From assembly GCA_964202455.1 (NCBI GenBank), contig CAXNIJ010000005.1, forward strand, positions 18,171 through 82,170: a stretch of 64,000 bases of DNA. Reading direction: 5' to 3'. Shown here piece by piece: positions 18,218-19,717 of the stretch; positions within the stretch are counted from its first letter, which is position 1; each line of letters starts with the position of its first letter. The DNA is from Candidatus Pacearchaeota archaeon. GTDB taxonomy: Archaea; Nanobdellota; Nanobdellia; Pacearchaeales; GW2011-AR1. The notes under the pieces are model-generated. The model had not been told where the DNA came from. It saw only the letters and a list, made by a program, of their open reading frames with translations, and did not search any database. The translations under genes were made by a program, and so were the position numbers.

Positions 18218-19717
18218 CTAATCTAAAAGCTCTTCTCGACTTGCTTGTAATATTTTTAATCTAGTGGGATGTCTAAATTTTTTAAGAACTATCATTTCAA
18301 TTTGTCTAATACGCTCTCGAGTAACGCGATATATTTCTCCTATTTCTGCAAGAGTGCGAGGAGATTCCCCATCAAGACCATATCTTAAAGTGATAATTTT
18401 TCTCTCTTGCGGTTTTAATGTGTCTAGTAAATCTCTAATATTATCTCCTACTAAAGAGTTATGTGCCCCTTCATAGGGTTTTAATTGTGAAGTATCTTCA
18501 ATTTGATTATATAGGTTCGTATCAGTATTCTCTCCAATTTGAGAATCAAGATATATTTTTTCTTTTCCAGCATTTAAAGTTCTTTTTATTGTATTTTCAT
18601 TAAATCCGGTAGCGCTTGCAATATCTTCTATTGTTGGGGTGTATCGTAATTCATCTTCTTGATGTTCTTCATATAAATTTTTTATGGCTAAATTAATCTT
18701 AGAGAGATCTTCTTGCACATGTATTGGGATACGGATACCTGAACTAGATTCTTGAAATTCTCTTCTAACTGCCTGTTTTATCCACCAGAGACCATATGTT
18801 GAAAACTTATAACCTCTGTCTACATCAAACTTTTCTATCCCCCTCATTAGTCCTATGTTGCCCATAGAGTGAAGATCTTCAATTGAAACAAATGTACCTC
18901 CTAGCTTCAATTCGAATTTTCTGGCGTAATAATAAACAAGACGTTGATTACGTTTCATTATTTCTTCCCTATTTTGATAGTAAATTGCTCGATGTCTTAA
19001 AATATCTTTTAAAATATCTGTAAGTGTTTCTGGAACAATGCCCAATTCTGCGGCAATAGCGTTATAAATTTGGATCTGTCTAGAATGAGAAAATTCGTCT
19101 CTTTTAGAAAAATCTTGCCAACTTTCTATTTTTGAAGCATATTCTATAAGTCCTGGAATATGTTCTTCCCCTTCTAATCTATTCTCTAGATTTTGCACGT
19201 TAGCATTCCAAGGAATCAGTGTTTTAGATTGCTCAAGACTATTTTTCTCTATAATTTTTGAAATGGAGGGATTGTATTTTCCTGAATTAGCCAATAATGC
19301 CCTATTTGAATAAACTAATTCATAGACTTCTGGAACAACTGAATTTGCACTATCTATTATTTCTTGAGGTTCTTTATTAAAACTGCGTCTAATCATCGTT
19401 TGAGACATTTGTGAAGAAATTCCATTTGCTCCTAATTGAGCTACACGAAATGCAGCTAGACCTACAAGAAGAGTATTTTCTGTCCAACTCTTATATGCAC
19501 TTTTAAGACTTAAAAATAAATCTCTTTCTTCTTTTGGAGTTAATATGGAATGAGCCAATAGTTTGTTCAAATAGGGAATATTTCTAACTTCTTCATCTTT
19601 TGGAATATAAACAGTATCAGATTCATATTCTTTTAATTCTTGAGATGGGGGTTCTGCAAGATCCTCAAGTAAGTAAGGGGTTTTTGGTTGATTTTCTGAA
19701 TTATCTAATTGGTTCAT
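18218..19717 (-). CDS. Bacterial-type RNA polymerase sigma-70 family protein (regions 1.2, 2, 3, 4 recognisable)
   Basis: Region 1.2-like [20 protein letters not shown]. Region 2: [12 protein letters not shown]...[36 protein letters not shown]. Region 3: [15 protein letters not shown]. Region 4: [47 protein letters not shown]. Confidence 0.9.
   Translation of the reverse strand: [499 protein letters not shown]

Follow-up and report, generated by a model that had tools for sequence, protein, structure and literature searches.

In textbooks, sigma factors on the one hand, and TBP, TFB and TFE on the other, mark the divide between bacterial and archaeal-eukaryotic transcription. The locus studied here, in a 64,000-nucleotide stretch of a contig assigned to a Candidatus Pacearchaeota archaeon (hereafter, the window), carries a sigma-70 family gene close to a ribosomal protein gene of archaeal type, and raises the questions of whether this gene belongs to the archaeon and what its product could do there. 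Its presence is less of a surprise than the initial annotation implied, as sigma-70 genes have been known in DPANN since 2021 (Castelle et al. 2021; PMC8204110) and one record of the subfamily, P0124, is already labelled in NCBI nr as ‘sigma-70 family RNA polymerase sigma factor [Candidatus Pacearchaeota archaeon]’. In the consulted sections of that paper, the DPANN genes form the family fam00359, are described as ‘particularly prevalent in Woesearchaeota’, and both what controls them and what they do are posed as a question.

Identity and domain architecture of the sigma-70 protein

The gene and the segments of its product are located in the window as follows.

18218-19717, minus strand: sigma-70 family gene of a DPANN subfamily, ATG start, 499 aa (ORF, Pfam, NCBIfam and AF2 model)
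19622-19654, minus strand: N-terminal acidic motif E-P-(P)-S-x-x-E-L, residues 22-32 (subfamily alignment)
19490-19573, minus strand: region 1.2-like segment, residues 49-76 (alignment position shared with the r1_2 matches of P0153 and P0205)
18968-19489, minus strand: subfamily-specific NCR-like helical domain, residues 77-250 (alignment and pLDDT)
18752-18958, minus strand: sigma region 2, residues 254-322, in which the -10 recognition motif is retained (Pfam r2 and residue mapping to E. coli sigma70)
18857-18877, minus strand: DLHSMGN, the altered motif of region 2.2 (by comparison with E. coli sigma70)
18476-18706, minus strand: sigma region 3, residues 338-414, including motif 3.0 (RIPIHVQE) and linker 3.2 (Pfam r3)
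18269-18430, minus strand: sigma region 4, residues 430-483, which contains the helix for -35 recognition (Pfam r4)

The open reading frame encodes a divergent RpoD-type sigma-70 family protein, and a standard RpoD is excluded. Three Pfam domains follow one another in the window protein, each above its gathering score: Sigma70_r2 (E=1.3e-14, 54.2 bits against 24), Sigma70_r3 (E=2.4e-9, 37.6 bits against 25.3), and Sigma70_r4 (E=4.2e-15, 55.4 bits against 24.1). The NCBIfam model of the sigma-70 superfamily, TIGR02937, was also matched well above its cut-off (90.7 versus 42.9 bits). The top NCBIfam matches were RpoD models, but the scores fell far below the level required for that assignment, with 226 bits against an equivalog cut-off of 555 for PRK05658 and 207.5 bits against 354 for TIGR02393, the RpoD C-terminal domain. 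In a phmmer search of PDB sequences, residues 212-492 matched E. coli sigma70 with E=1e-47, and the same protein gave the top PDB fold matches to the AF2 model (pLDDT 80.4), over about 500 aligned columns.

From the N-terminus, the architecture consists of the acidic motif, the region 1.2-like segment, the NCR-like helical domain, sigma2, sigma3 and sigma4, without region 1.1. The acidic motif is found throughout the subfamily, occupies the place of the bacterial region 1.1 and is modelled with moderate pLDDT; only 48 residues precede the 1.2-like segment. Neither Sigma70_r1_1 nor Sigma70_r1_2 was matched by the window protein at E<=0.01, and no subfamily member matched Sigma70_r1_2 even at E<=0.1, whereas a Sigma70_r1_1 match is present in the bacterial-like relative P0153. 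The label ‘1.2-like’ is based on the column-by-column alignment of residues 49-76 with the r1_2 segments of P0153 and P0205, both bacterial-like relatives. The initial annotation had described a full-length sigma-70 homologue and proposed a profile search for regions 1.2 to 4; the family, regions 2, 3 and 4 and the domain order of a primary sigma are borne out, as are the sigma-70 motifs it quoted, all of which are present in the 499-aa ORF, while ‘full-length’ does not hold for a protein that lacks region 1.1, fails the r1_2 model and scores 226 bits against the RpoD cut-off of 555.

What had been taken for a non-conserved spacer of about 180 aa turned out to be a conserved helical domain. 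Averaged over its columns, identity among the three members closest to one another is 68%, its pLDDT exceeds 90 across most of residues 60-260, and the PRK05658 alignment extends N-terminally into it, to residue 129. Region 4 is the best conserved domain of the subfamily, with a mean pairwise identity of 52%. The sigma3.2 linker has a normal length and a low pLDDT, as expected for a sigma modelled free.

Among known systems, the closest are the bacterial group 1 factors RpoD/SigA, and especially the E. coli-type sigma70 with its non-conserved region, which share the order of 1.2-like, NCR-like, sigma2, sigma3 and sigma4 domains, give the best sequence and fold matches, and have near-identical -10 and -35 motifs. 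The window protein differs from them in the absence of region 1.1 and of a Pfam r1_2 match, in a four-residue insertion and the loss of Q406/E407 in region 2.2, and in the replacement of T440 by R; moreover, its gene is archaeal and paired with an orphan partner, whereas the bacterial gene accompanies rpsU-dnaG. Archaeal TFB/TBP are functional analogues, since promoter recognition and DNA opening are the roles of sigma in bacteria, but there is no meaningful sequence relation to TFB, and the window protein is a true sigma-70 homologue. It shares with the DPANN genes of Castelle et al. (2021; PMC8204110), as far as the consulted sections of that paper describe them, the sigma-70 class, a Woese-/Pacearchaeota host, the exclusion of mis-binning and the lack of a recognisable anti-sigma factor; like them, it is a sigma-70 protein on a contig with archaeal markers. 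Those sections do not describe the conserved upstream partner, the subfamily N-terminal domain or the altered region 2.2, and neither the partner gene nor the altered core-binding motif seems to have been reported earlier.

Host, relatives and selection

The contig is archaeal, as the initial annotation had concluded from TFE, TFS, MCM and aRF1. Precomputed Pfam matches confirm these four genes; L15e, NAC, Sec61-beta and aIF2-beta lie on it as well, and it also carries a tRNA with an intron. The nearest of the markers is also the syntenic neighbour of the sigma gene:

16970-17542, minus strand: ribosomal protein L15e (Pfam Ribosomal_L15e, E=9.8e-63)

The two genes lie on the same strand and are separated by 676 bp, close to the 700 bp first given, with an orphan 172-aa ORF between them. 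Clustered at 90% identity, aRF1 and FtsZ group with records named ‘Nanoarchaeota archaeon’ and ‘Candidatus Pacearchaeota archaeon’, and the closest named orthologue contig is that of a ‘Candidatus Woesearchaeota archaeon’.

The subfamily is rare, with about a dozen clusters at 50% identity. An exhaustive profile search returned about a dozen full-length relatives at 215-433 bits, covering the N-terminal domain too, and of these P0153, P0205 and P0267 are bacterial-looking; bacterial RpoD proteins matched at about 215-230 bits, over the C-terminal half only. All the subfamily contexts recovered are archaeal, and the named records belong to Woese-/Pacearchaeota. In a neighbour-joining tree, 11 of 12 members clustered in a long-branched clade with a weak bootstrap of 19%, and the mean distance was 1.18 for the subfamily versus 0.57 for bacterial RpoD, or approximately twofold faster evolution. 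Because of the low bootstrap and the long branches, the phylogeny that was to reveal the donor lineage does not allow one to be named. Further searches added little: a pattern scan of genome contigs gave only the Woesearchaeota orthologue contig, two clade-specific pattern scans of metagenome contigs gave none, and a word-index search returned only P0003 with the N-terminal profile and only P0121 and P0122 with that of the partner.

An assembly or binning artefact, in which a bacterial fragment had been joined to an archaeal contig, was the case that the initial annotation had singled out as contrary to its reading. No support for it was found. The C-terminal half of the protein is indeed 37-40% identical to bacterial RpoD (e.g., of Dependentiae and Halothiobacillaceae), but no bacterial match is above 43% identity; the best of them are a mix of Dependentiae/TM6 and Gammaproteobacteria. 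The gene order is identical in the ENA MEGAHIT (136.9 kb), NCBI (140.5 kb) and Logan (13.9 kb) contigs; in another sample (locus L003), an orthologue with 61% identity also adjoins L15e, and in other samples the neighbours of subfamily members are RpoH, TFS, PCNA and Archease, so that the survey of orthologues and synteny proposed at the outset gave archaeal contexts. The GC level is flat over both junctions of the locus, and the z-scores of the sigma gene against 60 genes of the window (+0.69 for codon usage, -0.62 for GC and -1.3 for GC3) lie inside their spread, in agreement with what had been judged by eye. Because its composition is like that of its neighbours, the transfer was not recent. 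With the same junctions in three assemblies and an orthologous locus in another sample, the sequence data, as far as they go, exclude a chimera, and the artefact is effectively refuted.

It is also very unlikely that a virus, a plasmid or a defence island carries the gene as cargo, for instance as an MzaA-like sigma from the MZA anti-phage system, or that the gene is decaying as a relic; a viral or plasmid relic had been among the possibilities listed in the initial annotation. There are matches to MzaA in NCBIfam (E=1.3e-60) and PADLOC (E=5e-35), in which the C-terminal sigma2-sigma4 part aligns, and to a PHROG sigma factor, but all of them reflect generic sigma similarity: the MzaA score is 206 bits against a cut-off of 800, the N-terminal part differs and no MZA partner genes are nearby. 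One family member (locus L018) sits between restriction-modification genes; in the window, by contrast, the flanks are core housekeeping genes and the neighbours have no PADLOC or PHROG matches. Relatives in IMG/VR are only 30-38% identical, over the C-terminal part, and none is close. Finally, at least 8 lineages have an intact ORF, and the comparison of the window gene with its L003 orthologue (pN 0.243 versus pS 0.656; synonymous sites are saturated in the other pairs) indicates purifying selection. We conclude that the gene is real and native to a DPANN archaeon from the Woese-/Pacearchaeota group (‘Nanoarchaeota’ in NCBI), in which selection maintains it.

The upstream partner gene

Three further features lie upstream of the sigma gene.

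19701-20558, minus strand: partner gene, orphan, 285 aa (ORF; homologues lie upstream of sigma in other contexts)
20578-20584, minus strand: TTTAAAA, a candidate TATA-like box of archaeal type, 20-26 nt ahead of the ATG of the partner (read from the sequence)
20680-20925, no strand assigned: copy of a hairpin-rich dispersed repeat, lying just upstream of the operon and with an uncertain link to it

In 7 of the 8 distinct contexts, a homologue of the partner (285-364 aa) directly precedes the sigma gene, often overlapping it; the exception is the member P0126 (locus L018), with no partner within 6 kb. The overlap between partner stop and sigma start is 17 nt in the window and in L003, and 4 nt in L010. 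Judging from this arrangement, the sigma gene is normally translationally coupled to the upstream orphan protein.

The window copy of the partner had no match in Pfam, NCBIfam, PHROG, PADLOC or PDB sequences, and Pfam scans of six homologues (E<=5) yielded only noise, as did a profile search of PDB (E<=10). Similarity to a known anti-sigma domain was likewise absent from the Pfam searches with the six homologues, from NCBIfam and from PDB sequences, and the partner could be a new kind of sigma-binding protein. An AF2 model made from two sequences reached a pLDDT of just 43.7, which is not good enough for searching folds. In L010 and L011 the middle module is present in duplicate. We also considered that a single excisionase-like wHTH might be repeated as the middle and the C-terminal module, and ruled this out (hhalign probability 0.1). 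The partner alignment (A6) was too divergent for search patterns to be derived from it.

The TATA-like box is a weak candidate because the region is AT-rich. The repeat contains six to eight perfect short inverted repeats, and its 50-nt core recurs at 40782-40831 and 6873-6922 of the window; folding gave z-scores of -5.5 and -7.3. It belongs to no Rfam family (best match 20 bits against a gathering score of 78), and its core has no exact match in IMG/VR.

DNA-contact residues and possible mode of action

Residues are numbered here by their equivalents in E. coli sigma70, and counts are over 13 subfamily members. The overall identity among members is just 23-52%, yet the equivalents of Y430, W433, W434, Q437, R441, H455, E458, R584, E585, R586, R588 and Q589 are present in 10-13 of the 13. 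Those of Y430, W433, W434, Q437, R584, E585, R588 and Q589 all occur unchanged in the window protein and in 11-13 members, those of the -35 helix (R584, E585, R586, R588 and Q589) are kept in 12-13, and H455 and E458 of region 3 are present in the window protein. According to this alignment, the residues with which a sigma reads the -10 and -35 promoter elements have been retained in the subfamily. In regions 2.1-2.2, N383, D403 and G408 are kept as well and N409 is variable, while the Q406/E407 pair is replaced in 13 of 13 members, versus 240 of about 250 non-family, bacterial-type matches that keep it; the canonical group 1 motif DLIQEGN is thus DLHSMGN in the window protein. By the same mapping, the replaced Q-E pair is the one in region 2.2 that bacterial sigmas use against the beta-prime clamp helices.

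Our preferred reading, held tentatively and at somewhat under even confidence, is a sigma-derived promoter-DNA-binding factor that works with the partner on the archaeal transcription machinery. The sigma protein would no longer serve a bacterial core enzyme; it would be a sequence-specific, promoter-DNA-binding transcription factor in complex with the partner protein, and this complex would act on the archaeal transcription apparatus. The likeliest route would be the docking of sigma2, directly or via the partner, on the clamp coiled-coil of Rpo1N/A', the homologous site, where TFE and Spt5 bind; sigma2 and NusG/Spt5 use this same clamp coiled-coil site. Such docking could lead to the selection or modulation of some promoters. 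To our knowledge, there is no obvious archaeal equivalent of the beta-flap tip, the anchor of sigma4 in bacteria, which counts against this mechanism. In a simpler version, the protein would bind operators independently of RNAP, which the lack of the autoinhibitory region 1.1 would permit; sigma70 without region 1.1 is able to bind promoter DNA alone.

A more elaborate version, which we consider rather doubtful, would make sigma and the orphan partner a DPANN-specific two-component module coupling bacterial promoter recognition to archaeal RNAP. The lost beta-prime contact would be made good by the partner or by region 2.2 in its remodelled form, and initiation at some promoters would be hybrid (sigma-type -35/-10 elements on a TBP/TFB-type enzyme). 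Promoters of the sigma70 type were considered as targets and dropped, as they were not enriched in the 12-26 kb part of the window or in the whole of it, where sequences with >=10/12 consensus matches numbered 44 against 49.4 +/- 7.5 expected, and those with >=11/12 numbered 2 against 3.0 +/- 1.9. This result weighs against the preferred reading too, as do the partnerless member P0126, the weak bootstrap of the long-branched subfamily clade and the poor model of the partner.

A purely RNAP-independent repressor or activator, binding DNA through the HTH surfaces of sigma4 and sigma2 and keeping the sigma architecture as an evolutionary leftover, is an unlikely but serious alternative. Archaeal regulators are mostly HTH proteins of bacterial type, and typical ones are presented in this way in PMC2995911 as well. 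The high conservation of sigma4, the missing region 1.1 and the loss of the core-binding Q-E pair would all suit such a protein. Against it, the whole multi-domain architecture has been kept despite the low identity among members, including the sigma3.2 linker, N383, D403, G408 and the aromatics of the melted -10 DNA, none of which a plain HTH regulator would need. W433, W434 and Y430, which contact melted DNA in the holoenzyme, fit a polymerase-bound role, with either type of polymerase. Retention of the residues contacting the -10, extended -10 and -35 elements, and of N383, D403 and G408, together with the normal length of the linker, would equally suit a bona fide sigma for a bacterial-type core RNAP, either that of a bacterial host or partner cell to which the protein is delivered or one undetected in the archaeon, and bacterial hosts are considered for some DPANN in the consulted sections of Castelle et al. 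(2021; PMC8204110). We regard this as improbable, given the universal loss of Q406/E407 and the variable N409, the roughly doubled rate of evolution relative to bacterial RpoD, and the lack of any secretion signal or delivery system noted at the locus. In about 74 kb of the contig inspected, no bacterial RNAP gene was present, and it is reasonable to regard the genome as lacking a bacterial core RNAP; we know of no archaeon with such an enzyme.

Several DPANN lineages have kept, under purifying selection, a sigma gene with intact promoter-reading residues and a rewritten main polymerase-binding motif, tied to an apparently undescribed partner, and the question raised in 2021 on the control and role of these sigma factors is now concrete and testable. 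If the target were the polymerase of a bacterial partner, the gene would be evidence for bacterial hosts of some DPANN. If, on the other hand, archaeal RNAP is what the pair acts on, no earlier case would be known in which a bacterial initiation factor functions with a polymerase of archaeal type.

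Identity of the sigma protein and of its host

The gene and the Pfam domains of its product are as follows.

18218-19717, minus strand: sigma-70 family ORF, ATG start, 499 aa
Residues 254-322: Sigma70_r2 (Pfam, E=1.3e-14)
Residues 338-414: Sigma70_r3 (Pfam, E=2.4e-9)
Residues 430-483: Sigma70_r4 (Pfam, E=4.2e-15)

All three matches exceeded the Pfam gathering scores and lay in the canonical order. The top NCBIfam matches were RpoD models (PRK05658, 226 bits, residues 129-491; RpoD C-terminal domain model, 207 bits), and E. coli sigma70 was matched at E=1e-47 when PDB sequences were compared by phmmer. 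Because of these Pfam, NCBIfam and PDB matches, the protein, judged by its sequence, certainly belongs to the sigma-70 family. The initial annotation had read it as a full-length primary sigma factor with a region 1.2-like segment. The ordered regions 2 to 4 and the RpoD-type best models agree with that reading, but the scores are far under the equivalog cut-offs (555 for PRK05658 and 354 for the C-terminal domain), and neither Sigma70_r1_1 nor Sigma70_r1_2 was matched in the Pfam scan.

As had been proposed, the host is archaeal: the contig also encodes ribosomal protein L15e, TFE (TFIIE_alpha), TFS (Zn_ribbon_TFIIS), MCM, aRF1, NAC, Sec61-beta, aIF2-beta and a KH/PNO1-type protein. Members of the 90%-identity clusters of aRF1 and FtsZ include NCBI entries labelled 'Nanoarchaeota archaeon' and 'Candidatus Pacearchaeota archaeon', and the only close sigma relative among GTDB-representative contigs is on one titled 'Candidatus Woesearchaeota archaeon'; together these place the host within the DPANN archaea, in the Woese-/Pacearchaeota group. 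The FtsZ cluster (gene at 2426-3505, plus strand) also contains a record of the CPR bacterium 'Candidatus Liptonbacteria bacterium', probably the result of mis-binning in a public MAG.

An identical sigma protein with the same flanks was present in ENA MEGAHIT (136.9 kb), NCBI (140.5 kb) and Logan (13.9 kb) contigs, possibly all from one and the same source sample. The GC level across the region was 0.31-0.36 and, in line with the earlier by-eye impression that the gene resembles its neighbours, its synonymous codon choice did not stand out among 60 window genes (z=+0.69; GC3 z=-1.3). An orthologue at ~61-62% identity, from the separate run SRR22388039, likewise adjoins L15e. As far as sequence data go, a chimeric contig was ruled out by these shared flanks, flat GC, native codons and the orthologue beside L15e, and we hold with very high confidence that the sigma-family gene is genuine and native to a DPANN archaeon.

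Two further features were seen on the contig. The tRNA match extends over 205 nt and so implies the presence of a long intron (~130 nt), and the transposase genes indicate active mobile elements in what is a small genome.

6537-6741, plus strand: tRNA, Rfam match of 45 bits over the whole model, uncalled by ARAGORN
50637-51536, minus strand: transposase gene(s), DDE_Tnp_1 / DDE_Tnp_IS240, also at 3735-4949 of L006, the part of the contig upstream of the window

The DPANN subfamily and its residues

A word-indexed search returned only two close relatives, P0002 (61% identity) and P0003 (48%), followed by thousands of bacterial RpoDs aligned over the C-terminal half only (32-43%). An exhaustive profile search of 1.84 billion representatives added P0123, P0124, P0125, P0126, P0128, P0130, P0131, P0138, P0139 and P0191. 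These ten proteins (457-524 aa) scored 221-433 bits with alignments that also covered the N-terminal 250 residues; ordinary bacterial RpoDs plateau near 215-230 bits, in the C-terminal half. P0124 is NCBI MBI2632171.1, 'sigma-70 family RNA polymerase sigma factor [Candidatus Pacearchaeota archaeon]'. The suggested survey of related archaea gave archaeal surroundings in every fetched genomic context: RpoH (Rpb5_C) adjoins P0125, while TFS, PCNA, Archease and an MJ0538-family gene are close to P0128, P0126, P0003 and P0123, respectively, and the orthologue in context L003 adjoins L15e. For P0003 (contexts L004/L007), the tblastn alignment of the window protein begins at L007 position 5743, at residue 8, and the called start is 5881; the stretch 5743-5880 may reflect a mis-called start or a frameshift.

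In a neighbor-joining tree of sigma2-sigma4, 11 of the 12 members formed one group without bacterial sequences, at a weak bootstrap of 19%. Mean distances in this set were 1.18 between members, 1.19 between members and bacteria, and 0.57 among bacterial RpoDs. The donor lineage, which phylogeny had been expected to reveal, could not be named from this tree. The common N-terminal domain and the common partner gene described below are better evidence than the tree for a shared origin.

The AF2 model of the window protein (16-sequence alignment) had a mean pLDDT of 80.4, with most of residues 60-260 above 90, and its top PDB matches were E. coli sigma70 chains, over ~500 aligned columns. Based on the model and these matches, the N-terminal half is predicted to be an all-helical domain that aligns with region 1.2 and the NCR of E. 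coli sigma70. Seven archaeal members were scanned with Pfam r1_2, and none gave a match; the bacterial-like relatives P0153 and P0205 did, and their matched stretches align exactly to window residues 49-76. Region 1.1 is absent, and in the subfamily alignment an acidic short motif, E-P-S-x-x-E-L, is kept at the extreme N-terminus.

Conservation in the 13 subfamily sequences (E. coli sigma70 numbering, assigned via PDB alignment)
Y430, Q589: -10 / -35 contacts, 13/13 kept
W433, W434, R584, E585, R586, R588: -10 / -35 contacts, 12/13 kept
Q437, R441: -10 contacts, 11/13 kept
H455, E458: extended -10 contacts, 10/13 kept
N383, D403: regions 2.1-2.2, invariant
G408: region 2.2, 12/13 kept
Q406, E407: region 2.2, both together 0/13 (Q alone 2/13, E alone 3/13)
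N409: region 2.2, varies

The Q-E pair was found in 240 of ~250 non-family matches. In the window protein the corresponding residues are S and M, with a four-residue insertion just before them. Q406, E407 and N409 are part of the main contact to the beta-prime clamp helices. Mean pairwise identity within the subfamily was highest in sigma4 (52%), followed by sigma2 (39%).

Between the window and L003 sigma genes, pN was 0.243 and pS 0.656 (dN/dS ~0.19); in other pairs synonymous sites were saturated. pN was well under pS in all regions, including the N-terminal domain. L15e is 76% identical in the same two genomes, versus ~61-62% for sigma, and by these comparisons the gene is under purifying selection yet faster-evolving than a ribosomal protein.

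The partner gene and the adjacent hairpin repeat

Partner ORFs were found directly upstream of the sigma gene in the window and, as homologous ORFs of 285-364 aa at the equivalent position, in six more contexts.

19701-20558, minus strand: partner, 285-aa ORF, 17-nt overlap with the sigma start
L003: partner copy, 17-nt overlap with sigma
L004: partner copy
L010: partner copy, 4-nt overlap with sigma
L011/L012: partner copy
L009: fragment, broken off at contig end
L013: fragment, broken off at contig end

An HMM built from the partner alignment recovered the full copies at E=1e-101 to 1e-116 and the fragments at E=1.7e-29 (L009) and E=3.2e-6 (L013). The sole context without a copy within 6 kb was L018, that of P0126. 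In L018 (1-12359), P0126 lies between two restriction-modification sets (TaqI-like and MwoI-like, with N6_N4 methylases). The partner has a conserved helical hairpin at its N-terminus, a middle module (present twice in L010 and L011) and a C-terminal module with the consensus R-x-P-Y-S-x-I-K-I-S-E-R-T-G-I-P-E-x-F-I...G-x-K-T-Y-x-P-E-N-L. It had no match in Pfam, NCBIfam, PHROGs, PADLOC or PDB sequences, and its AF2 model was too poor to use. Synteny and translational coupling make it the clearest candidate for a protein dedicated to sigma binding, adaptor or anti-sigma-like, and it probably binds sigma.

Two orphan ORFs flank the operon, which is also abutted by one copy of a hairpin-rich dispersed repeat.

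20680-20925, plus strand: repeat copy 1, perfect short hairpins in series, abutting the partner-sigma operon directly upstream
40545-40852, plus strand: repeat copy 2
~6850-7100, minus strand: repeat copy 3
17639-18157, minus strand: orphan ORF, 172 aa, flanks the operon
21027-21404, plus strand: orphan ORF, 125 aa, flanks the operon

The right-hand ~115 nt of copy 1 recur near-identically at 40.7-40.85 kb and inverted at 6.85-6.96 kb, and the window contains three copies of a 50-nt core (GAAACTCTTCGAGTTTCGAGGCGATCAGAAACTTTCAGTTTCTGACGTTT), versus 0 expected. Each copy extends as perfect 7-10-bp hairpins, with arms TCAAGAAY/RTTCTTGA and TCAGAAAC/GTTTCTGA; TCAAGAAY was counted 34 times in the window, a three-fold excess over the expected 11.9 +/- 3.4. 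Folding z-scores were -5.5 and -7.3, and in hairpins aligned between copies the arm sequences diverge while complementarity is kept. The repeat belongs to no Rfam family and had no exact match in IMG/VR. Because convergent genes enclose one of the copies, the element is not just a promoter; it may be MITE-like or a structured RNA. TCAAGAAY-N(3-9)-RTTCTTGA hairpins were also seen in other sigma-carrying Woese-/Pacearchaeota contigs (L004 745-765 and 4700-4860; L011 2560-2581), in L004 just upstream of the partner gene.

Neither orphan ORF matched Pfam, NCBIfam, PHROGs or PADLOC, and L003 has no counterpart of the 172-aa ORF at the equivalent position. Inside this ORF, between the sigma gene and L15e, both 11-of-12 sigma70-consensus matches of the 64-kb window overlap on opposite strands at 17762-17813 (TTGACA-18-TTTAAT and TTGTCA-17-TATAAT); they may be due to chance, with ~3 expected per window. 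Consensus sigma70 promoters were not enriched within the window.

Novelty and possible role of the pair

Sigma-70 genes (fam00359) were reported in newly reconstructed DPANN genomes as 'particularly prevalent in Woesearchaeota' by Castelle et al. (2021; PMC8204110), who excluded mis-binning, left the mechanism open and found no anti-sigma factor in DPANN; the gene described here is therefore a further case of an already reported phenomenon. Our full-text literature search found no functional follow-up of these genes. Within the literature searched, three points appear to be new: a subfamily is delimited that has an N-terminal domain of its own, its members have systematically lost the Q-E core-binding pair, and a partner gene is conserved beside it.

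Service to a bacterial core RNAP, such as the polymerase of a bacterial partner, seems improbable. The protein might instead be an RNAP-independent regulator that binds operators, a doubtful reading although nearly as likely as docking to the archaeal RNAP; the preserved sigma3.2 linker and melted-DNA aromatics are not easily reconciled with a plain HTH repressor. Action on or through the archaeal RNAP is the reading that we tentatively favour. The docking site would be the clamp coiled-coil, because the full multi-domain architecture is retained, that linker and those aromatics included, and because this coiled-coil is, to our knowledge, the only sigma-binding element that bacterial and archaeal polymerases share by homology. 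The sigma protein would then no longer serve a bacterial core enzyme and, together with its partner, would be a promoter-DNA-binding factor acting on the archaeal transcription system.
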